From positions 1 to 10,666 of IMG/VR virus record IMGVR_UViG_638341082_000009: a stretch of 10,666 nucleotides of DNA, one strand, 5' to 3'. Each line of letters opens with the position of its first letter. The first letter of the stretch is position 1. This document shows, in pieces, positions 1-10,666 of this stretch. A model generated the notes under the pieces. That model was not told where the DNA came from. It saw nothing but the letters and a program-made list of their open reading frames with translations, and made no database searches. The position numbers and the translations under genes are program-made. Origin of the DNA: a virus (taxonomy: Duplodnaviria; Heunggongvirae; Uroviricota; Caudoviricetes).

Positions 1-1053
1 TTACGGGGTAATGCCAACCGCTGCCGCCACTTTGTCGCCACTTGGCAGCGTTGCCAGAGGATTGAAACGGAGCGCCGTTTCTAGATGATCCGGTGCCAGA
101 TGTGCGTAACGCATAGTCATTTTTATATCGTGGTGTCCGAGAATTTTTTGTAAGGCCAGAATGTTTCCACCCGACATCATGAAGTGCGCCGCAAACGTAT
201 GGCGCAGAACGTGTGTGAGTTGACCGCGAGGGAGCACGATAGACGTTTTTTCCATCACGGATAAAAATTGAAAATAGCAGTCTGTGAAGAAATTGAACCC
301 ATCAAGCGCCATGATCTCTTCATAAAGCTCTTTACTGATAGGGATGCTTCTGTTTTTCTTCCCCTTCGTTCTTACAAAGGTAATTCGGTATTTAGTCACC
401 TGTGATCGGGTAAGGTTTATTGCTTCTCGCCAGCGTGCGCCTGTGCTTAAGCATATCTTGACTACCAGTGCCAGAATTGGGTCCTGACGTTTGCAATCAG
501 CCAGCAGTTCAACAATCTGCTCATGGGTAAGCCATGCCATCTCTTTTTCTGCGATGGTGAATTTTCGCATGTTCTCCAGTGGGTTTGGATACGACCATTC
601 GCCCAGGCGGGATAGTTCGCTAAAAACACTACTTAGATAGCTTTGCTCCAGGTTAATGGTGACCGGGCTGGCTCCTTTCTTCCATTTCTCGCTGAAGTAG
701 ATCTCACCTGTCAGGCGTTTATCTCGATAGTGGGCAAACATTTTAGAGGTGAGATTGGTTGCAAGAGGATTGCCTAGAGCGTCAACCATCAGCAGCAATT
801 TGTCATAGACATGCTGCCCAGCAGTCAGAGATTTACCATGTAATTTGAACCATAGCTCAACCACGTCTTTCAGGGTTCGACGATCCACTGATTCGCCCAG
901 CCAGGGCTTTGATTCGGTTTCTTCCATCGTGTGACGCTCAAAAGCCAGAGCTTCGCCTTTGGTGGCGAATTGTTTACGCACACGACGCCCACTTCGTCCG
1001 GCGGGGTAACATTCGCAAAGCCATTTCCCTGTGGTGAGTTTTCGTACTGCCAT
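1..1053 (-). CDS. int: Phage integrase (tyrosine recombinase, P2/186-like)
   Basis: 350-aa ORF with stop at 1-3. C-terminal region (HTFAAHFMMSGGNILALQKILGHHDIKMTMRYAHL) is typical of the tyrosine recombinase catalytic domain. Minus-strand RBS GGAGGG about 9 nt upstream of the ATG at 1053. Lies downstream of the repressor in the same orientation, as in the P2/186 lysogenic operon. Confidence 0.9.
   Translation of the reverse strand: MAVRKLTTGKWLCECYPAGRSGRRVRKQFATKGEALAFERHTMEETESKPWLGESVDRRTLKDVVELWFKLHGKSLTAGQHVYDKLLLMVDALGNPLATNLTSKMFAHYRDKRLTGEIYFSEKWKKGASPVTINLEQSYLSSVFSELSRLGEWSYPNPLENMRKFTIAEKEMAWLTHEQIVELLADCKRQDPILALVVKICLSTGARWREAINLTRSQVTKYRITFVRTKGKKNRSIPISKELYEEIMALDGFNFFTDCYFQFLSVMEKTSIVLPRGQLTHVLRHTFAAHFMMSGGNILALQKILGHHDIKMTMRYAHLAPDHLETALRFNPLATLPSGDKVAAAVGITP
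19..40. repeat. Left copy of 22-bp imperfect direct repeat (candidate attL core), inside the 3' end of int
   Basis: CGCTGCCGCCACTTTGTCGCCA at 19..40 matches CGCTGCCGCCATTTTGTCGCCA at 7812..7833 at 21 of 22 positions. Similarity ends on both sides of the 22 bp. The two copies bracket all phage-like genes. Confidence 0.5.
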
Positions 1054-1143
1054 AAAAAATGCCCTCCAGTGGAGAGCATTTATACTGTTTTTTTATACAG
1101 TGTCAATGTATGATGATTGGATAACTATACATATGTTATGTGT

Positions 1144-1824
1144 TTAATGCATTTTAGTTACATCTATGTTTTTATTGATTGTCTCTTTGTTACTGGAAAG
1201 TCTTTGTTCTTTTCTTTTAATGTATAACTCCCAACGAATATTATTCATTATGATAGCGTAGATATTAAAAATAAATGTCTTTACTACTAACACTAAGTAA
1301 ATAAGGCTAGTCCCTATAACACAGTATCCAAATTTAATAATTAATTCTTTTATCGATTTTGAATATGGAAATAAATCAATTATATTGCCAATTATTCCAT
1401 CTTTTTGACAAAAGAGAATTATTATTAGATAAATGAAAGTAAACGTAATAAATGAAATGAAAACTTTCATAAATGCCATAAAGTTATATTTTAACGTGGG
1501 CATCTGTGTTTTTTTATGTTGTATTGACATCATCTGAAGAAACATCTCGGGTTTGGATAGTGTTGCAAATATTGTGAAACCAGCAATGAGAAAACCTAAG
1601 GTTGTCACTGCAAAGTTAAAACCAATCAAAGCCCAGTTTCTAATGTCAGATACTAAATGAGACATATCCTTCTCAATAAAAAAAGAGTTTGTTAATAAAA
1701 AAATAGATGCTGTGAGCAAAATGCAAATATGGAATGTACTAATAGTAATCCGTTTGCAGAGCAAGTAAACATCCCAAAGGTTTTTCTCTTTGGTTATTTC
1801 TTTAGCATCTATTTTATTTATCAT
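1144..1824 (-). CDS. Hypothetical membrane protein, about 4 predicted TM helices; candidate effector of a two-gene prophage cargo module
   Basis: 226-aa ORF with four long hydrophobic runs (e.g. ISTFHICILLTASIFLLTNSFFI, WALIGFNFAVTTLGFLIAGFTIFATL, FMAFMKVFISFITFTFIYLIIILFC, LIYLVLVVKTFIFNIYAIIM). Its ATG overlaps the upstream gene's stop as ATGA at 1821-1824. Strongly AT-rich, roughly 30% G+C by manual count of sampled stretches. No family recognised. Confidence 0.6.
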   Translation of the reverse strand: MINKIDAKEITKEKNLWDVYLLCKRITISTFHICILLTASIFLLTNSFFIEKDMSHLVSDIRNWALIGFNFAVTTLGFLIAGFTIFATLSKPEMFLQMMSIQHKKTQMPTLKYNFMAFMKVFISFITFTFIYLIIILFCQKDGIIGNIIDLFPYSKSIKELIIKFGYCVIGTSLIYLVLVVKTFIFNIYAIIMNNIRWELYIKRKEQRLSSNKETINKNIDVTKMH

Positions 1825-2849
1825 CGACCAAACCTTTCATATATATTGCTAATAATTCTAATCGTCTTTTGTGAAAGAGAACGGGGTAGAGATATCTTAC
1901 CTTCTTCTACAAGATTTTCATACCGCTCATAACTTTCATTTGCAGCTACTACCGTATCCTTTGATAATTCATTCATCTCACTTAACAAAACAAAGTCATC
2001 ATTGCTACCTTTGATTATATCACCATTGTCATCATATCCTTTAATATTTATTCCTGAATTAGCCAATCTGGTTGCTGATGTGAGTTGTTCTAAAACAGCA
2101 CCATGATTCAAGCCTGAATCGGTGTTTGAAAAGCGAATAGATGTAGAAATACTTCCCATTTCGTCTCCGGCACTTTCAAGTGACTCCCAAAATTCGTCGT
2201 TATCAATTTCTTCTTGATTTGTAGGGAGAAGTTTTACTGAGACATTTTGGATTTTATTAAAATTATCAATAAATTGCTCTAGGCTTTGTTTGTCAGTTAA
2301 CGGCGTTATTCTTAGCTTCGGGCGTTTGATTTCGTTCCGTAAGCTTTTTTTAGTGACTCGAGGTAAGTCAGGGTTTTCTTTGCGTTCTTCTTGTGCGGTT
2401 TCGTATAAATGAGATATGTATTTTTCATATTCTATGTTTAAGAAGCACTGACTTGTTGACTGAAAGTTTTGAATTGTGGGAGCACCACTAACTTCCTTGC
2501 AAAGAATTAATCTGTGAGTGTTTAATATTAGAAGAAAGAAAGAGCTCGGGGCTGTTTCAAGCTCTTTATGATCTTCAACCAAATCAGCACCATCAAATAC
2601 TTGTTCTCTGGTTAATAATGTATTCTTAATAATCCGACCTTTAATTCCGAGTACTGGGGGTGTTGCTTCTTCGTCAAGTATGACGCATTCAGTATCAATG
2701 AAAAAGAACTCTGATTTGTCAGATATTCTGCGGATGTTTGCCATCTCCAAAAAAGAGGGGAAAACAATTTCATCATAATAGTCTAGCAAAACATCATCAC
2801 CAAAACGGAGAGTATAATTTCCAAATTCGAGTTTTTTTATAAAATCCAT
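1821..2849 (-). CDS. Hypothetical soluble protein (342 aa), first gene of the two-gene cargo module; function unknown
   Basis: 342-aa ORF starting 15 nt after the repressor stop codon, with minus-strand GAGG about 9 nt upstream of the ATG. Strongly AT-rich. Contains acidic stretches; I see no Walker A, HxD or other recognisable catalytic motif. Stop overlaps the start of the downstream membrane-protein gene. Confidence 0.6.
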   Translation of the reverse strand: MDFIKKLEFGNYTLRFGDDVLLDYYDEIVFPSFLEMANIRRISDKSEFFFIDTECVILDEEATPPVLGIKGRIIKNTLLTREQVFDGADLVEDHKELETAPSSFFLLILNTHRLILCKEVSGAPTIQNFQSTSQCFLNIEYEKYISHLYETAQEERKENPDLPRVTKKSLRNEIKRPKLRITPLTDKQSLEQFIDNFNKIQNVSVKLLPTNQEEIDNDEFWESLESAGDEMGSISTSIRFSNTDSGLNHGAVLEQLTSATRLANSGINIKGYDDNGDIIKGSNDDFVLLSEMNELSKDTVVAANESYERYENLVEEGKISLPRSLSQKTIRIISNIYERFGR

Positions 2850-2864
2850 TACTATGCCTCAAGA

Positions 2865-3743
2865 TTAAATAGTACGGTACTGTGAGAAAATTTTGGCAAC
2901 TAATTTTATATCTTCTTTTTCACAATCAAATGTTAAATCATCGTCTGTTACTCGAAGATTGCCTCCAGGTAATAGAAAAATTTGTTTTAACTTGAAATTA
3001 TTTTGGTATTGAACAATCCATCTTCCGTCTTCAACATTAGCTTTATTCATGTGTGCAATATTTATGCAATGTTCGTCTTCAATTGCGAGTAAATCATTAA
3101 AATGAGGAAGCAGGGACTTATCTATCAATAAATGACCAGCATCGAAAATTTGATTGTCAATAAGTTTTACTTTAGGAATTTCTAAAGCTTCACTTTCTTC
3201 GCTTCCAAGTTTTTGCCCGCGCCCAGTTGCTAACCATAAAAGAGAAGTTCTTGTTTCCAACGAGCATCTTATGATCCAGTCAGCTGGGAATGTGTCTCGC
3301 AAGTATCTATTCGCCATTGTGCTTTTAGACACATTCAAATGGTCGGCAAGTTCTTGTCTTGTTTTAAAGCCATACGCTTCCATTAGCCTGTTTATCGCAT
3401 TACGTCCACCTGAATCCAGATTTGGATGGTTCACAATTGGGTTCTCGTTGGTGGTGGCTTTGGGAACATATTGAACCAATGATGCTGGTTCCTCTAATTT
3501 AGCGGGAACTTCGGTATTCTTAGGAAATGGCACGCCTTTTCCGAATGAGAGCCACTCTATAGATGCTCCTGTTTCAATTGCACACTGAATTACCCAGTCA
3601 GCAGGAAATGCGTCACGCATCCAGCGCGTTCCCATAGTACTTGCAGATACATTGAACTGTTCACATAGGGCTTGCCGCGTCTTGAATCCATACGCTTCAA
3701 GCATGCGCGTTATGACTGCCTGTCCTCCGTTTTTGAAATTCAT
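2865..3743 (-). CDS. cI: Phage 186 CI-like immunity repressor with tandemly duplicated N-terminal HTH domain
   Basis: 292 aa. Two paralogous roughly 60-aa segments (ITRMLEAYGFKTRQALCEQFNVSASTMGTRWMRDAFPADWVIQCAIETGASIEWLSFGKG and INRLMEAYGFKTRQELADHLNVSKSTMANRYLRDTFPADWIIRCSLETRTSLLWLATGRG) match the pattern of the 186 CI DNA-binding domain as I recall it. The C-terminal part (GRWIVQYQNNFKLKQIFLLPGGNLRVTDDDLTFDCEKEDIKLVAKIF) resembles the 186 CI C-terminal domain. Divergent from an Apl/Cox-like gene. Confidence 0.8.
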   Translation of the reverse strand: MNFKNGGQAVITRMLEAYGFKTRQALCEQFNVSASTMGTRWMRDAFPADWVIQCAIETGASIEWLSFGKGVPFPKNTEVPAKLEEPASLVQYVPKATTNENPIVNHPNLDSGGRNAINRLMEAYGFKTRQELADHLNVSKSTMANRYLRDTFPADWIIRCSLETRTSLLWLATGRGQKLGSEESEALEIPKVKLIDNQIFDAGHLLIDKSLLPHFNDLLAIEDEHCINIAHMNKANVEDGRWIVQYQNNFKLKQIFLLPGGNLRVTDDDLTFDCEKEDIKLVAKIFSQYRTI

Positions 3744-3769
3744 CTAGTACGCCTTTGAGTAATATTGAG

Positions 3770-3798
3770 TTGACACTTCTCAAATGAAGAATTAATGT
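3770..3798 (+). promoter_or_regulatory. Candidate sigma70 early lytic promoter (pR/Pe-like) in the repressor-apl switch region
   Basis: TTGACA at 3770-3775, 17-bp spacer, TAATGT at 3793-3798, reading rightward toward the Apl-like gene. Sits in the 125-bp divergent intergenic region between the cI start (3743) and the apl start (3869). Confidence 0.45.
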
Positions 3799-3868
3799 GT
3801 GCGAAAGTGAACTTGACGGTGTTAATCACCAGTTACCACACATCATGTTAATCGAGGAATCTTGCATC

Positions 3869-4090
3869 ATGACTCCACATATTTCAATCACCTTAGCTGT
3901 TCCATCTGTTTCTATTGAGAAATACAGCGAACTGACTGGCTTATCTATCGACACCATCAATGACATGCTGGCTGATGGACGTCTTATTCGCCATCGTCTC
4001 CGTAAGGATAAAAAGCGAGAAAAGGTGATGATCAATATCGCAGCAATGACTGTTGATGCACTCGCTGAATGCAATTTGAGCATTAACTAG
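3869..4090 (+). CDS. apl: Apl/Cox-like excisionase and transcriptional regulator (small HTH protein)
   Basis: Start chosen at the ATG at 3869 because GAGGAA lies 9 nt upstream and the longer ORF start at 3797 would fall inside the predicted promoter. Contains an HTH-like segment (YSELTGLSIDTINDMLADGRLIR). First rightward gene, divergent from the repressor, as in the 186/P2 switch. Confidence 0.5.
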   Translation: MTPHISITLAVPSVSIEKYSELTGLSIDTINDMLADGRLIRHRLRKDKKREKVMINIAAMTVDALAECNLSIN

Positions 4091-4104
4091 TTCCATTTTG
4101 GGTT

Positions 4105-4485
4105 ATGTCAGAGATGTCGAATATGTTTGATTACCAAGTTTCCAAACATCCACATTTTGATGAAGCCTGTCGTGCATTCGCATTGCGCCACAACCTGGTG
4201 CAACTGGCAGAACGTGCTGGCATGAATGTGCAGATTCTGCGGAACAAGCTGAACCCAGCTCAACCTCATTTATTAACCGCACCAGAAATCTGGCTGCTTA
4301 CCGATCTGACTGAAGATTCAACGCTGGTAGATGGTTTTCTGGCGCAGATTCATTGTCTGCCATGTGTACCGATTAATGAGGTGGCAAAAGAGAAACTGCC
4401 ACATTACGTCATGAGTGCAACCGCAGAGATCGGGCGTGTTGCTGCAGGTGCGGTATCTGATGAAAGTGCGTGCGCATCAGTATGA
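4105..4485 (+). CDS. cII: CII-like phage regulatory protein (186 CII/CP76-like), probably 3'-truncated or chimeric at a deletion junction
   Basis: 126-aa ORF after apl with an HTH-like segment ([19 protein letters not shown]). Its 3' end runs 26 nt into the X start at 4460, where the gene neighbourhood switches abruptly from early-region to late-region genes. Start codon uncertain (ATG at 4105, 4114 or 4123). Confidence 0.5.
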
Positions 4486-4663
4486 CACGGTGGACGCGCT
4501 TTGCTGGCGTCATTACGGGCGCACGCAGGGTGTCACGGAGCAGGTACTGAAGGCAAATCCGGGGCTTGCCGAATACGGCCCCTTTTTACCTCACGGGCTA
4601 CAGGTGGAGCTGCCGGACATTCCGACAACCACCACCGTGCAGACCGTCCAGCTATGGGACTGA
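4460..4663 (+). CDS. X: P2 gpX-like tail protein X (LysM-like)
   Basis: 67-aa product from the internal ATG at 4460 ([54 protein letters not shown]...), matching the length and sequence pattern of P2 gpX. Followed by holin and endolysin genes as in the P2 X-Y-K order. Confidence 0.8.
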   Translation: MKVRAHQYDTVDALCWRHYGRTQGVTEQVLKANPGLAEYGPFLPHGLQVELPDIPTTTTVQTVQLWD

Positions 4664-4666
4664 ATT

Positions 4667-4882
4667 ATGACGCTTGAGCGAATCAGCGCCTTTATCACGT
4701 ATTGCATCGCCGTCGTGCTAGCCTGGCTGGGCGATTTGTCCATCAAGGATGCCTCAACGCTGGGCGGCCTGATGATCGGTGTGCTGATGCTGGCTATCAA
4801 CTGGTACTACAAACACAAAGCCTACCAGCTTCTGCGCGACGGGCAGATCTCGCGGGAGGACTATGAATCCATCAATCGTTAA
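4667..4882 (+). CDS. Y: Phage holin (P2 gpY position)
   Basis: 71-aa small membrane protein with two hydrophobic helices and a charged C-terminus (KHKAYQLLRDGQISREDYESINR). Sits between X and the endolysin start, and its 3' end overlaps the endolysin ATG at 4863. Confidence 0.65.
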   Translation: MTLERISAFITYCIAVVLAWLGDLSIKDASTLGGLMIGVLMLAINWYYKHKAYQLLRDGQISREDYESINR

Positions 4883-5006
4883 ACGCTGCCTTGTCGGGGT
4901 TGTGCTGGCTATTGCTGCCACGCTGCCGGGTTTTCAGCAGCTTCACACCTCCGTGGAGGGACTGAAACTGATCGCCGATTACGAAGGCTGTCGTCTGCAG
5001 CCGTAG
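4863..5006 (+). pseudogene. K: N-terminal fragment of a SAR-type endolysin (gpK position), truncated after about 47 codons
   Basis: MNPSIVKRCLVGVVLAIAATLPGFQQLHTSVEGLKLIADYEGCRLQP then stop. This is the hydrophobic signal-arrest-release segment and the start of the lysozyme catalytic motif (EGC...). The rest of the catalytic domain is absent and the sequence continues directly into tape-measure C-terminal coding sequence. Confidence 0.6.
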
Positions 5007-5032
5007 GTGCTCTGCTTAGTCCGATAGGTCTT

Positions 5033-5923
5033 GTGGTTACTGCACTGGCGGGCGTGGCACTGGTTGTCTGGAAATACTGGCAACCCATCACTGCATTTCT
5101 CGGTGGCGTGGTGGAAGGATTCAAAGCGGCGGCAGGTCCCGTCAGTGCTGCGTTTGAACCACTTAAGCCTGTGTTCCAGTGGATTGGCGACAAAGTGCAG
5201 GCGTTGTGGGGCAGGTTTACTGATCTGCTGACGCCAGTTAAGTCGACCTCTGCAGAACTGCAGAGTGCAGCGGCAATGGGGCGACGATTCGGGGAGGCAC
5301 TGGCGGAAGGGCTGAATATGGTCATGCATCCGCTGGACTCCCTGAAATCCGGCGTTTCCTGGTTGCTGGAGAAGCTCGGCATTGTCAGTAAAGAGGCCGC
5401 AAAGGCAAAACTGCCGGAAAGCGTGACGCGTCAGCAACCTGCGACGGTGAATGCCGACGGTAAAGTGATGATGCCATCGGGTGGTTTTCCATCATGGGGA
5501 TATGGCTTTGCGGGGATGTATGACAGCGGCGGCTATATCCCGCGCGGGCAGTTTGGCATTGTCGGTGAAAACGGGCCTGAAATTGTCAACGGCCCGGCAA
5601 ACGTGACCAGCCGGAGAAATACCGCTGCACTGGCTGCGGTTGTCGCCGGAATGATGGGCGTTGCTGCCGCGCCTGCAGAGCTTCCACCGTTGCATCCTTT
5701 GGCACTTCCCGCGAAAGGCGGCGAAGCGATGGTGAGTCGTGCAGCCACTGTGCCGCCCGTTCAACGGATTGAGGCACCGACGCAGATCATCATTCAGACG
5801 CAGCCAGGACAAAGTGCGCAGGATATTGCGCGGGAGGTGGCCCGCCAGCTTGATGAACGTGAACGCAGGCTGAAGGCAAAGGCCAGGAGTAACTACAGCG
5901 ATCAGGGGGGATACGACGCATGA
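5033..5923 (+). pseudogene. T: C-terminal remnant of tail tape-measure protein (gpT position), no credible native start
   Basis: Reading frame is open from 4883 with no ATG or RBS of its own; 5033 is merely the first GTG. The product ends ...KAKARSNYSDQGGYDA and overlaps the U start as ATGA at 5920-5923. Position immediately upstream of U and D matches the P2 order T-U-D. High G+C, unlike the lysogeny module. Confidence 0.7.
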
Positions 5924-6405
5924 TGATGGTACTGGGATTGTACGTGTTTATGCTGCGCACCGTGCCGTATCAGGAACTGCAGTATCAACGTAGCTGGCGA
6001 CATGCGGCAAACAGTCGGGTAAACCGTCGTCCGTCCACGCAGTTTCTGGGACCGGACAACGACATGCTGACGCTTTCCGGTGTTCTTATGCCGGAGATAA
6101 CAGGCGGCAGGCTGTCGTTGCTGGCTCTGGAGCAGATGGCAGAACAGGGGAAAGCATGGCCCCTGATTGAAGGTAGCGGCACGATTTACGGCATGTATGT
6201 GATTGAGGGACTGAATCAGACTAAAACGGAGTTTTTCCGCGACGGTATGCCGCGCCGGATTGAGTTCACCCTGTCGCTCAAACGGGTGGATGAATCCCTG
6301 TCCGATATGTTCGGTGATCTCAGTTCGCAGCTGAATAATCTGCAGGACACGGCAACATCTGCATTAAGCGATATCAGTAAAACTGTGGGAGGGCTGCTGT
6401 CGTGA
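5920..6405 (+). CDS. U: P2 gpU-like tail protein
   Basis: 161 aa starting MMMVLGLYVFMLRTVPYQELQYQRSWRH..., closely matching P2 gpU as I recall it. Overlaps T (ATGA) and D (GTGA). Confidence 0.85.
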   Translation: MMMVLGLYVFMLRTVPYQELQYQRSWRHAANSRVNRRPSTQFLGPDNDMLTLSGVLMPEITGGRLSLLALEQMAEQGKAWPLIEGSGTIYGMYVIEGLNQTKTEFFRDGMPRRIEFTLSLKRVDESLSDMFGDLSSQLNNLQDTATSALSDISKTVGGLLS

Positions 6406-7502
6406 ATTTCAGCTCTGAACTGCTTAACAAAGGCAACAAAACTCCCGCATTCAGCATCAGTATTGAAGGCAAGGATATCACCACTGTGCTGGATAACCGC
6501 CTGATGGGGCTTACGCTGACGGATAACCGGGGCTTTGAAGCGGACCAGCTTGATCTGGAGCTGGACGACGCCGACGGAAAAATCGTGCTGCCGCGCCGTG
6601 GTGCGGTCATTACGCTGGCGCTGGGCTGGAAGGGGCAGCCGCTTTTCCCGAAAGGGGCATTCACGGTGGACGAGATTGAACACACTGGCGCACCGGACCG
6701 CCTGACTATCCGGGCGCGAAGTGCTGATTTTCGGGAAACGCTGAATACCCGCCGTGAAAAATCGTGGCACAAGACCACTGTCGGGGAAGTGGTGAAGGAA
6801 ATAGCTGCGCGTCACAAACTGAAGATGGCACTGGGTAAAGACCTGTCGGATAAACCCGTGGCTCATATAGACCAGACTAATGAGAGTGACGGCAGTTTTT
6901 TGATGCGGCTGGCGCGCCAGTACGGTGCCATTGCATCGGTGAAAAATGGCAATCTGTTATTCATCCGGCAGGGACAGGGCAAAAGCGCCAGCGGTAAACC
7001 ACTGCCGGTGATCACTATCACACGTAAGGACGGCGACAGTCACCGCTTTACCCTGGCAGATCGCGGAGCTTACACGGGGGTAATTGCCAGCTGGTTGCAT
7101 ACCCGTGAACCCGCGAAGAAAGAAAGCACTACGGTGAAGCGTAAGCGCAGGACTAAGAAGCAGAAGAAAGAGCCGGAAGCGAAGCAGGGCGATTACCTGG
7201 TGGGGACGGATGAAAACGTGCTGGTACTTAATCGCACTTATGCCAACCGGAGTAACGCCGAACGAGCGGCAAAAATGCAGTGGGAACGCCTGCAACGCGG
7301 CGTTGCGTCATTCTCGCTACAACTGGCGGAAGGGCGGGCAGATCTCTACACGGAAATGCCAGTGAAAGTCAGTGGCTTTAAACAGCCGATAGATGATGCG
7401 GAATGGACCATTACGACTCTGACACATACCGTCAGCCCGGATAATGGTTTTACGACCAGTCTGGAGCTTGAAGTGAGGATTGATGATTTCGAAATGGAAT
7501 GA
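6402..7502 (+). CDS. D: P2 gpD-like tail protein (late control gene D)
   Basis: 366 aa with a GTG start overlapping the U stop. Lies between U and ogr as in P2. Lysine/arginine-rich internal segment (KRKRRTKKQKKEPEAK). Confidence 0.85.
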   Translation: MNFSSELLNKGNKTPAFSISIEGKDITTVLDNRLMGLTLTDNRGFEADQLDLELDDADGKIVLPRRGAVITLALGWKGQPLFPKGAFTVDEIEHTGAPDRLTIRARSADFRETLNTRREKSWHKTTVGEVVKEIAARHKLKMALGKDLSDKPVAHIDQTNESDGSFLMRLARQYGAIASVKNGNLLFIRQGQGKSASGKPLPVITITRKDGDSHRFTLADRGAYTGVIASWLHTREPAKKESTTVKRKRRTKKQKKEPEAKQGDYLVGTDENVLVLNRTYANRSNAERAAKMQWERLQRGVASFSLQLAEGRADLYTEMPVKVSGFKQPIDDAEWTITTLTHTVSPDNGFTTSLELEVRIDDFEME

Positions 7503-7592
7503 TTCTTCGCAATGGAGAACTTTTAAGTTTGCAAAATGGAATAATGCGGTATCATTATTGTGAATTTAGCAAAAATGGGGAGAACTCGAAAA

Positions 7593-7811
7593 ATGATGAT
7601 TTGCCCACTGTGTGGAAGTGCCGCCCATACTCGCAGCAGTTTTCAGGTATCTTCATTGACCAAAGAGCGTTACAACCAGTGCCAGAACATTAACTGCAGC
7701 CATACTTTTGTTACCCATGAAACTTTTGTTCGTTCGATTGCAACGCCAAAAGAGTCAAATCCGGTTCAGCCGCATCCAATGAAATCAGGACAGGTGGCGC
7801 TCTCTCTTTGA
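7593..7811 (+). CDS. ogr: Ogr-family zinc-finger late-gene transcriptional activator
   Basis: 72-aa product from the ATG at 7593 (MMICPLCGSAAHTRSSFQVSSLTKERYNQCQNINCSHTF...) with the Cys-x2-Cys...Cys-x4-Cys arrangement typical of Ogr/Delta. GGAG upstream. Sits at the prophage right end next to the att candidate, as in P2. Confidence 0.85.
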   Translation: MMICPLCGSAAHTRSSFQVSSLTKERYNQCQNINCSHTFVTHETFVRSIATPKESNPVQPHPMKSGQVALSL

Positions 7812-7833
7812 CGCTGCCGCCATTTTGTCGCCA
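7812..7833. repeat. Right copy of 22-bp imperfect direct repeat (candidate attR core)
   Basis: CGCTGCCGCCATTTTGTCGCCA, immediately after the ogr stop codon (7809-7811); 21/22 identical to 19..40. Confidence 0.5.
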
Positions 7834-7891
7834 TCGTTAAAAAACAGTGCTTCTAACATCATGATTTTAAAAGGCATAAATTTCAGGCAAC

Positions 7892-7934
7892 AAAAAACCC
7901 ATCAACCTTGAACCGAAATGGCGGGGTTGATGGG
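7892..7934 (-). terminator. Candidate rho-independent terminator downstream of ybjL
   Basis: Perfect 10-bp inverted repeat CCCATCAACC (7898-7907) and GGTTGATGGG (7925-7934) with a 17-nt loop. Plus-strand AAAAAA at 7892-7897 gives a U-tract immediately after the hairpin on the minus-strand transcript. The loop is long, so confidence is moderate. Confidence 0.5.
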
Positions 7935-8046
7935 CTCCACAAAATGGGGACATCAAAGAAAAGCAGTGGCACTAATTAAGACTGATGCCCTGCGGAAAAG
8001 TTCTGCGGTTGTGCAAAAAAATTTCATTTTCAGGGCAACTTCAGTT

Positions 8047-9732
8047 TTATCCTAATCCTGGCCATACCATGACGATGATTGTCCCTGCCAGCGTCAGCAG
8101 GACGTTGGCGATTGCATAGGTGCCCGCATAGCCCAGCGCCGGGATGTTACTGCGAGCTGTATCACTGATGATCTCCATTGCCGGCGCGCAGGTACGTGCG
8201 CCCATCATTGCGCCGAACAACAGCGCGCGGTTCATTCGCAATACATAAGCACCGAACAAGAAACAGATAACCACGGGCACCAGACTGACAATCAATCCGG
8301 CAATCAACATCTGACCGCCAATCGCGCCCAGGCCGTTATTAATACCGCTACCGGCGCTCAGACCAACGCCTGCCATAAACACCATCAAGCCGAACTCTTT
8401 CACCATGCTTAATGCACCCTGCGGAATGTAACCGAAGGTCGGGTGGTTAGCACGCATAAAGCCCAGCATAATTCCGGCGAATAACAACCCGGCAGCGTTC
8501 CCCATGCCGAAACTGAATGTGCTGAACTGGAAGGTGATCATCCCGATCATCAGCCCAATAACAAAGAAGGCGCAGAATGCCAGCAGGTCAGTGACCTGGC
8601 TGTGAATCGAGATAAAGCCGATGCGATCGGCGATGGTTTTTACGCGGCGGGCATCGCCGCTGACTTGTAAAACGTCACCTTTGTTAAGCACGACGTTGTC
8701 ATCTATCGGCATCTCAATCTGGCTACGAATGACGCGGTTAAGGAAGCAACCGTGATCGGTCAACTTCAGTTGTGCGAGACGTTTACCTACAGCGTTATGG
8801 TTTTTAACGACCACTTCTTCAGTGACGATACGCATGTCGAGAAGGTCACGATCGAAAACTTCTTTACCGTTACGGAAGCTGGGATCGAGTCGGGCATGGG
8901 CGTCGGGATAGCCTACCAACGCTATTTCATCGCCCATTTGTAGCACGGCATCACCGTCTGGATTTGCCAGAATCCCGTTACGTCGAATACGTTCAATGTA
9001 GCAGCCGGTTTGTCGATAAATACCCAGTTCACGCAGATTTTTGCCGTCGGTCCAGGCCACCAGTTCCGGGCCGACGCGATAGGCGCGGATCACCGGTAAA
9101 TAAACCTTACGGTTGGCATCAGTGTCCAGGCCACGTTCGCGGGCGATTTGCTGGGCGCTGGTCTGTAAGTCCTGATGCTGCAATTTCGGCAAGTAACGCG
9201 CACCAACAATCAAACTCACCAGACCGATTAAATAGGTTAAGGCATACCCGAGGCTCAGATTATCCAGTGCCAGTGAGAGCTGCCTGCTTTCCATGCCGGA
9301 ATGACGCAGTGTATCGCCAGCACCGACCAGAACCGGTGTCGACGTCATAGAGCCTGCTAACATACCGGCCGTCAGGCCAATATCCCAGCCAAACAGCTTA
9401 CCTAACCCTAAGGCGATCACCAGCGCACTGCCAACCATCACCAGTGCTAACATTAGGTAATTTTTCCCATCGCGAAAAAAAATGGAAAAAAAGTTCGGTC
9501 CGGCTTCGACCCCGACGCAGAAAATAAACAGCATAAAGCCAAGATTAAGCGCATCGGTGTTAATGCTGAAATGTTGTTGGCCTAATAACAGCGATACGAC
9601 TAAAACGCCAATGGAATTACCCAGTTGGATCGAACCAAGTCGTAACTTTCCGAGACATAGCCCAAGCGCGAGGACCACAAATAATAACAGAATGTAATTC
9701 CCATTTAACAATTCGGCGACGTTTATATTCAC
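8047..9732 (-). CDS. ybjL: Putative transport protein YbjL (AAE-family transporter with internal TrkA-C-type cytoplasmic domains)
   Basis: 561-aa product with hydrophobic N- and C-terminal transporter halves around a soluble central region, GTG start. Length and the ybjL-ybjM-grxA neighbourhood match E. coli. Confidence 0.9.
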
Positions 9733-10001
9733 GGAGGCTAACTTCTTGTTTACTAGTAAGCTGTTGAAAGAAATGGTAATTTACGATAATGTTTTTTACC
9801 AGAATTCAGGGCGCAGATTCATTCAGCGCACCTAAACGATAGTAAAGTAACAATATATTTTACTAGTGTAATCACATTAGGTATCAACGGCTATATGAAT
9901 TGCGTTGGCCTATATTAGCATGGAATGCGAAGCGGCTTTATCTTACTGAACGCCACACTGGCGAAAAATGTGTTCGATAGACGCAGTGTCAGGAGGAACG
10001 A

Positions 10002-10379
10002 GTGAAACATAAACAACGTTGGGCGGGGGCAATCTGCTGTTTTGTCCTCTTCATTGTGGTGTGCCTTTTTCTGGCGACGCACATGAAAGGCGCTTTTCGG
10101 GCTGCCGGGCATCCTGAAATCGGCTTGCTATTTTTCATTCTTCCTGGAGCAGTCGCCAGCTTCTTTTCACAGCGTAGAGAAGTCCTGAAACCTCTGTTTG
10201 GCGCAATGCTGGCGGCACCCTGTTCGATGCTCATTATGCGGCTGTTTTTTTCACCGACGCGCTCATTCTGGCAAGAGCTGGCATGGTTACTAAGCGCGGT
10301 GTTCTGGTGTGCGCTGGGGGCACTGTGTTTCTTATTTATCAGTAGTTTGTTTAAACCACAGCACAGAAAAAATCAGTAA
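10002..10379 (+). CDS. ybjM: Inner membrane protein YbjM
   Basis: 125-aa hydrophobic protein with a GTG start and AGGAGG 5 nt upstream. Divergent from ybjL and convergent with grxA, as in E. coli. Confidence 0.85.
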   Translation: MKHKQRWAGAICCFVLFIVVCLFLATHMKGAFRAAGHPEIGLLFFILPGAVASFFSQRREVLKPLFGAMLAAPCSMLIMRLFFSPTRSFWQELAWLLSAVFWCALGALCFLFISSLFKPQHRKNQ

Positions 10380-10398
10380 AGCCCTCAACGCGAGGGCT
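10380..10398. terminator. Candidate bidirectional terminator hairpin between convergent ybjM and grxA
   Basis: 7-bp stem AGCCCTC / GAGGGCT with a 5-nt loop, lying between the ybjM stop (10377-10379) and the grxA stop (10409-10411). An A-run at 10367-10372 would give a U-run on the grxA transcript, but it is 7 nt from the stem. Confidence 0.4.
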
Positions 10399-10408
10399 TG
10401 TCAGACGA

Positions 10409-10666
10409 TCAGGCGTCCAGATTTTCTTTCACCCATGCAGCAAAATCGGTATAGCCGCCGATATGTTGCTGATCGACAAAAATCTGCGGCACGGTTTCTA
10501 CGGGTTTACCTGCCTTTTGTTGTAGATCTTCTTTAGTGATCCCTTCCGCACGAATATCTACATACTGATACTGAAAATCATCGCGTTCATTGCTCAATTT
10601 CTCAGCCAGATCTTTTGCACGCACACAGTAAGGGCAACCCGAACGACCAAAAATAACGGTTTGCAT
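10409..10666 (-). CDS. grxA: Glutaredoxin 1
   Basis: 85 aa, MQTVIFGRSGCPYCVRAKDLAEKL..., with the CPYC active site characteristic of Grx1 rather than NrdH (CVQC). Start codon at the window end, so the gene is complete. Confidence 0.92.
   Translation of the reverse strand: MQTVIFGRSGCPYCVRAKDLAEKLSNERDDFQYQYVDIRAEGITKEDLQQKAGKPVETVPQIFVDQQHIGGYTDFAAWVKENLDA

Follow-up and report, generated by a model that had tools for sequence, protein, structure and literature searches.

Two AT-rich genes lie between the repressor gene cI and the integrase gene int of a prophage in the Escherichia coli chromosome, and the question is what they do there. The stretch analysed here, called the window, is 10,666 nucleotides (nt) long (IMG/VR record IMGVR_UViG_638341082_000009, positions 1 to 10,666). 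It is an E. coli chromosomal segment with a P2/186-type prophage remnant beside ybjL, ybjM and grxA. The two genes encode a soluble protein of 342 amino acids (aa) and a membrane protein of 226 aa. The pair is probably a RexAB-type two-component anti-phage module, working by abortive infection or exclusion and carried as cargo of a 186/P2-like lysogenic cI–int operon. RexAB was the earliest abortive-infection system to be described.

Experimental tests of RexAB-like systems exist for lambda, Sbash, CarolAnn, Butters, Pseudomonas putida and Vibrio cholerae (Sucellos). A 2026 P. putida paper counted only five described RexAB-like systems (PMC12894663), and a V. cholerae integron study describes a sixth, Sucellos (10.1101/2024.07.02.601686). 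The original prediction on this locus, made from the sequence alone, had spoken of a 'candidate uncharacterised anti-phage module'; 'uncharacterised' is too strong for the class in view of these tested systems.

Two coupled genes between cI and int

The pair and its junction were placed as follows.

1821–2849, minus strand: gene (open reading frame, ORF) for the 342-aa cytosolic protein with a predicted RexA fold, the proposed sensor/activator
1144–1824, minus strand: gene (ORF) for the 226-aa inner-membrane protein with four predicted transmembrane (TM) segments, the proposed RexB-like effector
1821–1824, minus strand: ATGA stop/start overlap of the 342-aa and 226-aa genes (direct sequence reading)

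In GGTCGATGATAAAT (minus strand), the TGA stop of the 342-aa gene overlaps the ATG of the 226-aa gene, and this ATGA overlap couples the translation of the two genes. The pair is prophage-borne and next to the immunity repressor, starting 15 nt after cI; Serratia and Klebsiella phages use the same slot. The int start codon at 1053 is 90 base pairs (bp) past the stop of the 226-aa gene. The original prediction had described just this arrangement of two overlapping minus-strand genes, 15 nt after the repressor stop and 90 bp before int, and the ORF table and the sequence bear it out.

It had also put the G+C content of the pair far below that of the host genes and the phage late genes, correctly. 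The two pair genes have 35.4% and 27.8% G+C, versus 51.5% for ybjL, 56% for the tail genes and 48.5% for int. The count of about four helices in the 226-aa product agrees as well with the four hydrophobic segments found in it, the 342-aa product having none.

A predicted RexA fold in the soluble protein

The 342-aa protein has no hydrophobic segment (maximum 19-residue Kyte–Doolittle score of 1.16). Its AlphaFold2 model, made with a 51-sequence alignment, has a mean predicted local distance difference test score (pLDDT) of 87 and a predicted template-modelling score (pTM) of 0.84. The first domain (residues ~5–118) is an antiparallel β-sheet and is followed by a long helix (126–158), a second α/β domain (178–292) and C-terminal helices (299–341).

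The Foldseek search of this model covered 350,542 PDB chains. Chains B and A of lambda RexA (8TWQ) were the only matches below E 0.001, with E values of 1.3e-6 and 7.4e-6 and a probability of 1.00. The next match came at E 0.16, five orders of magnitude weaker. RdgC was the second-best structural relative.

According to the model, the cytosolic component has the two-domain RexA/RdgC fold, with the split globular domain and the dimerisation domain that RexA shares with RdgC. The global template-modelling score of the model against RexA is low at 0.30–0.35, which may be explained by the hinge and swivel loops between the RexA domains.

In all three hhalign runs with RexA, overlapping parts of one C-terminal region are covered, the widest alignment pairing residues 248–314 with RexA residues 198–264. 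The region consists of the last strands of the second domain and the returning helix, and has a kG-D-x-x-GD motif in common with RexA. This stretch fits the structural correspondence and is not significant alone.

Only H112, N211 and G271 are invariant in the soluble family (150 sequences, down to 27% identity). H112 is in an N-x-H-R-L motif and G271 in a kG-D-x-x-G motif. Judged by this conservation, the three are candidate functional residues.

HHpred matches to DUF4747 have been published for lambda RexA and the cytosolic Sbash, CarolAnn and Butters proteins (PMC6426596, PMC6426606, PMC7542560). The 342-aa protein has no match to Pfam DUF4747 (PF15931). Among 123 members of the soluble family, 3 match at E < 0.01, and the best of them, the relative P0097 (E 1.7e-4), scores 21.5 bits, under the gathering cut-off of 27 bits. 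Precomputed PF15931.11 marks are on about 20 of 120 homologues among the matches listed. By these scores, the soluble family would be a neighbour of DUF4747 and is not a member under the model run.

A membrane partner that is inherited together

The four hydrophobic segments of the 226-aa protein span residues ~30–50, 64–89, 114–140 and 161–196. The Lys/Arg distribution puts the N-terminus, the central loop (90–113) and the C-tail in the cytoplasm. The protein is thus predicted to cross the inner membrane four times and to have its two ends in the cytoplasm. Its AlphaFold2 model is all-helical with a pLDDT of 82.

Conservation in the membrane family peaks at TM2 (GFLIAGFTIFATL) and at the central cytoplasmic loop (SKP-x-MM...TLKYN). 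In Sbash gp31, the defence-abolishing substitutions map to the central cytoplasmic loop, which was taken as the likely contact for the RexA-like partner.

Co-occurrence of the two genes was examined at 43 loci having a complete soluble gene and enough downstream room, taken from GTDB genomes, IMG/VR and NCBI/Logan contigs. The membrane gene is directly downstream on the same strand at 42 of the 43 loci and for all distinct sequences (28/28). The one locus that departs from this is on a draft Dickeya contig and holds a frameshifted copy, with the membrane gene split; the sister genome is intact. Gene order and coupling are kept across Gamma- and Betaproteobacteria, and the soluble gene has a conserved four-TM neighbour in the same operon.

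The RexAB-type reading and its weight

A mechanism can be proposed by analogy with lambda RexAB, Sbash gp30/31, CarolAnn gp44/43, RexABpp and Sucellos SclAB. The pair would be transcribed with cI in the lysogen. The RexA-like protein would be a dimeric non-specific DNA binder, and the dimer would sense a product of the infecting phage, either a protein or a DNA–protein intermediate of replication or recombination. It would then engage the conserved cytoplasmic loop of the membrane protein and activate it. The activated membrane protein would oligomerise into a channel or pore, and the ensuing depolarisation, ATP loss and growth arrest or death would abort the infection.

Several results weigh against this reading. 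Neither pair protein matches any model in the library copies scanned, which were PADLOC-DB 2.0 (2023), Pfam-A, PHROGs and NCBIfam 20.0, and the lack of a PADLOC model for either counts here as such. The 342-aa protein has no match to Pfam RexA (PF15969) at E ≤ 1. When the soluble family was aligned by hhalign with lambda RexA, as a single sequence or as a 29-sequence alignment, the probability stayed below 2% (E 0.026). Neither the narrow nor the broad family profile retrieved a RexA chain (8TWQ) from the PDB sequences.

On the membrane side, the 226-aa protein has no match to Pfam RexB (PF15968), hhalign of the membrane family against RexB gave a probability of 0.6%, and Foldseek of the 226-aa model found no significant structural match in BFVD. 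Four-helix membrane proteins are also generic. Since neither Pfam, hhalign nor BFVD gives a relation, the RexB-likeness is architectural only, in the four-TM topology. RexBpp of P. putida is likewise without such a detectable relationship (PMC12894663).

In Butters, the effector is the RexA-like protein and not the membrane protein, so the roles here could be reversed. In the literature, we found no experimental work on the E. coli variant, be it expression, toxicity or phage challenge.

By function and architecture the pair would be classed as RexAB-type; by sequence it is outside Pfam RexA, RexB and DUF4747 with the models run. This agrees with the original prediction, which had recognised no motif in the 342-aa product and had asserted no sequence homology to Rex or Kiwa. 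The RexA/RexB-like architecture that it had proposed is borne out by the Foldseek match to RexA and by the four-TM partner found almost without exception. As for a lysogen-expressed exclusion or abortive-infection pair, the proposal draws support from the co-occurrence, the cI–int slot and the adjacency to Druantia described below, while the defence function itself is what we infer.

Two other identities were rejected. Kiwa combines a four-TM KwaA with a DUF4868 protein, KwaB; Pfam gave no DUF4868 match and PADLOC no match at all, and the gene order is opposite, the soluble protein coming first here. A holin or lysis role of the 226-aa protein was dismissed as its gene is in the lysogenic operon, far from any lysis cassette, and also occurs outside prophages.

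The pair may alternatively have another membrane-linked function, such as superinfection exclusion at DNA entry or toxin/antitoxin-like addiction, the RexA likeness then reflecting an RdgC-type DNA-binding scaffold only. This is unlikely in our judgement. The structural match to RexA (E 1e-6) is five orders of magnitude apart from the other PDB chains, and rdgC genes have no paired membrane protein. Moreover, every experimentally tested pair of a RexA-fold and a four-TM protein gives anti-phage protection.

Genomic contexts of the pair

The two genes travel together from one prophage lysogeny module or defence island to another. The survey suggested with the original prediction found it in the cI–int interval of other P2/186-like prophages, in Serratia, Klebsiella and other enterobacteria. 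The order cI–pair–int is seen in the 186/P2-like prophages of E. coli and Serratia (59% identity), in other enterobacterial viral contigs (60–95%) and in Klebsiella phage 4LV2017, an isolated Peduoviridae phage (42%). It is held, from E. coli through Serratia to 4LV2017, from 100% down to 42% identity.

In 4LV2017 (NC_047818; L023 1247–1850, minus strand), the partner gene encodes ~201 aa and matches the family profile at E 1.3e-68. The membrane gene is unannotated in the RefSeq record, which has an empty gap of 770 bp between int and a hypothetical protein.

Other contexts are more varied. In Plesiomonas, a lambdoid prophage carries the pair in its left arm, close to cI/cro and adjoining a phage rdgC. 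In Vibrio parahaemolyticus and V. vulnificus it is at the end of PM2-like (corticovirus-type) prophages, and in V. harveyi its immediate neighbours are a DruA...DruE Druantia cluster and an AlpA gene. It is free-standing in the chromosome in Pseudomonas and Pseudoalteromonas. In Dickeya (L043/L044 7419–9685), the pair and a C-terminal fragment of CI are the sole survivors of a decayed prophage at smpB.

The rdgC gene of Plesiomonas shigelloides (PF04381; L041 10139–11053, minus strand) is ~0.4 kb downstream of the pair. The Vibrio elements (L045–L048) are small, carry a Phage_GPA replication protein and a PM2-type P2 spike protein (PF18628/PF25513), and look like corticovirus-like prophages.

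From these varied contexts and the co-inheritance, it follows that the pair behaves like the cargo of defence islands, as a mobile module that stands on its own. They also bear on the idea that the pair mainly serves the lysis–lysogeny switch of its own prophage, the RexA-like DNA-binding protein biasing CI/Apl and exclusion being secondary or absent. Lambda RexA does tilt the switch of lambda to the lytic side without needing RexB, and the enterobacterial pair comes immediately after cI in the same apparent operon.

However, the pair occurs at ~50% identity without a nearby repressor, as beside the V. harveyi Druantia cluster, in Pseudomonas and Pseudoalteromonas and at the ends of the corticovirus-like prophages. 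It also survives in switch-less prophage remnants, those of this window and of Dickeya. A main role in the switch is weakened by both and appears improbable, and it would leave the obligate membrane partner unexplained.

Family size and selection

An exhaustive profile search found 692 cluster representatives of the soluble family at E ≤ 1e-3 and 353 at E ≤ 1e-30, one representative standing for each 50%-identity cluster. A word-indexed search gave 167 clusters for the soluble and 280 for the membrane protein. The homologues of the pair go down to ~27% identity. They are distributed over Enterobacterales, Vibrio, Shewanella, Pseudoalteromonas, Pseudomonas, Alcanivorax, Nitrosomonas and Rhodocyclales.

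In the window, both ORFs are intact and their sequences are those of the commonest E. coli alleles, and one variant is on at least 1000 contigs. Close variants are found in Salmonella (hundreds of contigs), Klebsiella aerogenes and Cronobacter, all called hypothetical protein, as RefSeq also calls both proteins of the window (WP_000345586 and WP_000608638). At ≥99% identity, the cassette is present in 13 of the 5426 complete E. coli genomes.

The ratio of nonsynonymous to synonymous substitution rates (dN/dS), taken against alleles of 90–95% amino-acid identity, is 0.05–0.08 for the soluble gene and 0.10–0.11 for the membrane gene. Both genes are thus under strong purifying selection. That they are inert AT-rich passenger DNA of a dead prophage, functionless in the present strain, is hardly credible: the prophage in the window is indeed a deletion remnant and both genes are annotated only as hypothetical, but both ORFs are intact and match the commonest alleles, dN/dS is 0.05–0.11, and gene order and coupling have been kept in both Gamma- and Betaproteobacteria.

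A putative lysogenic operon and the cargo slot

The surroundings of the pair contain the following features.

2850–2864, minus strand: spacer of 15 nt from the cI stop to the start of the 342-aa gene, with a GAGG ribosome-binding site at 2857–2860
2865–3743, minus strand: gene for the 186-type CI repressor of 292 aa (Pfam PF07022 in two stretches, E 4e-59, and PF16452)
1–1053, minus strand: int, the gene for the P2/186-type tyrosine integrase (Pfam Int_N and Phage_integrase; phage integrase in RefSeq)
1057–1081, minus strand: hairpin of 11 bp, then U6 (U-tract 1054–1059), directly before the int AUG (RNA fold)

A terminator scan between cI and the pair detected none, and co-transcription of cI and the pair is suggested for this reason. 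cI is the first gene of the putative lysogenic operon carrying the pair, and int is the downstream border of the cargo slot.

The int-side hairpin holds the Shine–Dalgarno sequence of int, GGAGG (1063–1067), within its 3′ arm. The 101-nt segment with this hairpin folds at −21.5 kcal/mol with a z of −2.97. The 81 bp nearest int are ~85% conserved in prophages with different cargo. The hairpin is likely an intrinsic terminator for the cI–pair transcript, a translational brake on int or both.

The CI repressor here has two tandem N-terminal copies of the PF07022 helix-turn-helix domain, with PF16452 as its C-terminal domain. The Serratia prophage and E. coli CI5 have a CI of 189 aa with one PF07022 copy. 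The CI of Klebsiella phage 4LV2017 is likewise long at 313 aa. With its DNA-binding domain doubled, the repressor here may recognise other operators or have a different immunity specificity.

The E. coli CI5 prophage occupies the same rcdA-side site (L002 6080–7607), and its cI–int slot holds a KAP-family P-loop NTPase of 443 aa and a 60-aa ORF. The KAP NTPase and the 60-aa ORF are the cargo in the cI–int slot of about 100 other E. coli genomes too. About 100 genomes share with the window only the int-proximal segment of 81 bp. The KAP NTPase with the 60-aa ORF is a candidate for another defence cargo. Unrelated gene sets are thus found between conserved cI and int flanks, as expected of the cargo of a variable slot. 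The cI–int interval was already pointed out as a defence hotspot by Rousset et al. in P2-related, K139-like Vibrio phages.

Through deletion, the prophage in the window is only a remnant, and its collinearity with the intact ETEC4091 prophage (L001) stops at base 4459. At base 4459/4460, cII (window 4105–4485) is shortened to 126 aa, versus 169 aa, and directly adjoins late genes. After the junction come a LysM gpX-like ORF, the C-terminal part of the tape measure, gpU, gpD and ogr. The remnant has no replication, head or lysis genes; int, the pair and cI are intact. The exact junction of cII and the late genes is in no complete E. coli genome of the collection.

The ETEC4091 prophage also has an AAA-family ATPase and a RloB-family protein just before the portal gene (L001 22920–24906). 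We take this position to be the classic P2 old/tin hotspot, and the ETEC4091 prophage would therefore hold two cargo loci.

Significance

A RexAB-like module at this place is well supported but unsurprising, the slot being an already suspected hotspot. The class, its architecture and its genomic logic are already in the literature, and so probably is the family itself. Canonical RexA is found only in a few lambdoid phages of enterobacteria, and the family here is far commoner and wider in its taxonomic range, with its 692 representatives at 50% identity versus 36 clusters at 90% identity for RexA proper, the latter count coming from the less sensitive word-indexed search.

The large and diverse alignment is of use for locating the sensor–effector interface, with H112, N211 and G271 on one side and TM2 and the central loop on the other. 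Two families of 'hypothetical protein' become annotatable. The cI–int slot of 186-like coliphages joins the list of prophage defence hotspots.

It is possible, though doubtful, that the pair represents a distinct and widespread clade of RexA-fold plus four-TM proteins. Such a clade of 692 representatives, spread over Gamma- and Betaproteobacteria, would be separate from lambda RexAB, RexABpp and Sucellos, unseen by the Pfam, NCBIfam and PADLOC copies searched and repeatedly recruited into repressor operons of temperate phages that are not related to each other. If so, its recurrence in 186/P2-like, lambdoid and corticovirus-like phages would imply a conserved coupling of the Rex sensor to the lysogeny switch and not a merely convenient insertion site.

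Comparison with known systems

RdgC (2OWL), a recombination-associated DNA-binding protein, differs from the 342-aa protein in being a housekeeping, stand-alone, ring-forming dimer with no membrane partner.

The lambda pair RexA/RexB (PF15969/PF15968; 8TWQ) is alike in that a small four-TM protein comes after a cytosolic RexA-fold protein of two domains. The genes likewise come next after the immunity repressor on the lysogenic transcript, sensor first and membrane protein next, the transcript here being a putative one. In contrast, there is no detectable sequence similarity, and the proteins here are longer, with 342 versus 279 aa and 226 versus 144 aa. The carrier phage is of the 186/P2 type and not lambdoid.

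The actinophage pairs Sbash gp30/gp31, CarolAnn gp44/gp43 and Butters gp30/gp31 similarly combine a cytosolic protein having a DUF4747-type HHpred signal with a four-TM protein. They are prophage-expressed and give heterotypic defence. Unlike the pair here, they belong to actinobacterial hosts and their membrane proteins have 165–178 aa; in Butters the effector is the cytosolic protein.

In P. putida, RexABpp (PP_5643/PP_5644; PMC12894663) is separated from the repressor by two other genes, which is not the case here. None of the loci collected here matches the seven published RexBpp mutation positions.

Sucellos (SclA/SclB, VCA0367–VCA0368; 10.1101/2024.07.02.601686) fits the family here well by description. 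It is RexAB-like by predicted structure but unmatched by the Pfam Rex models; it works only with both genes present, and a pore is predicted for SclB. Its homologues are mostly prophage-borne and often in Salmonella, and Salmonella, E. coli and Vibrio are rich in the family here. The cassette size fits a pair of about 1.6 kb. Unlike the pair here, Sucellos is an integron cassette with its own promoter and is not in a cI operon. Given this description and the abundance in the three genera, the pair is likely, if with some reserve, a member of the Sucellos family, the two being compared by description only.

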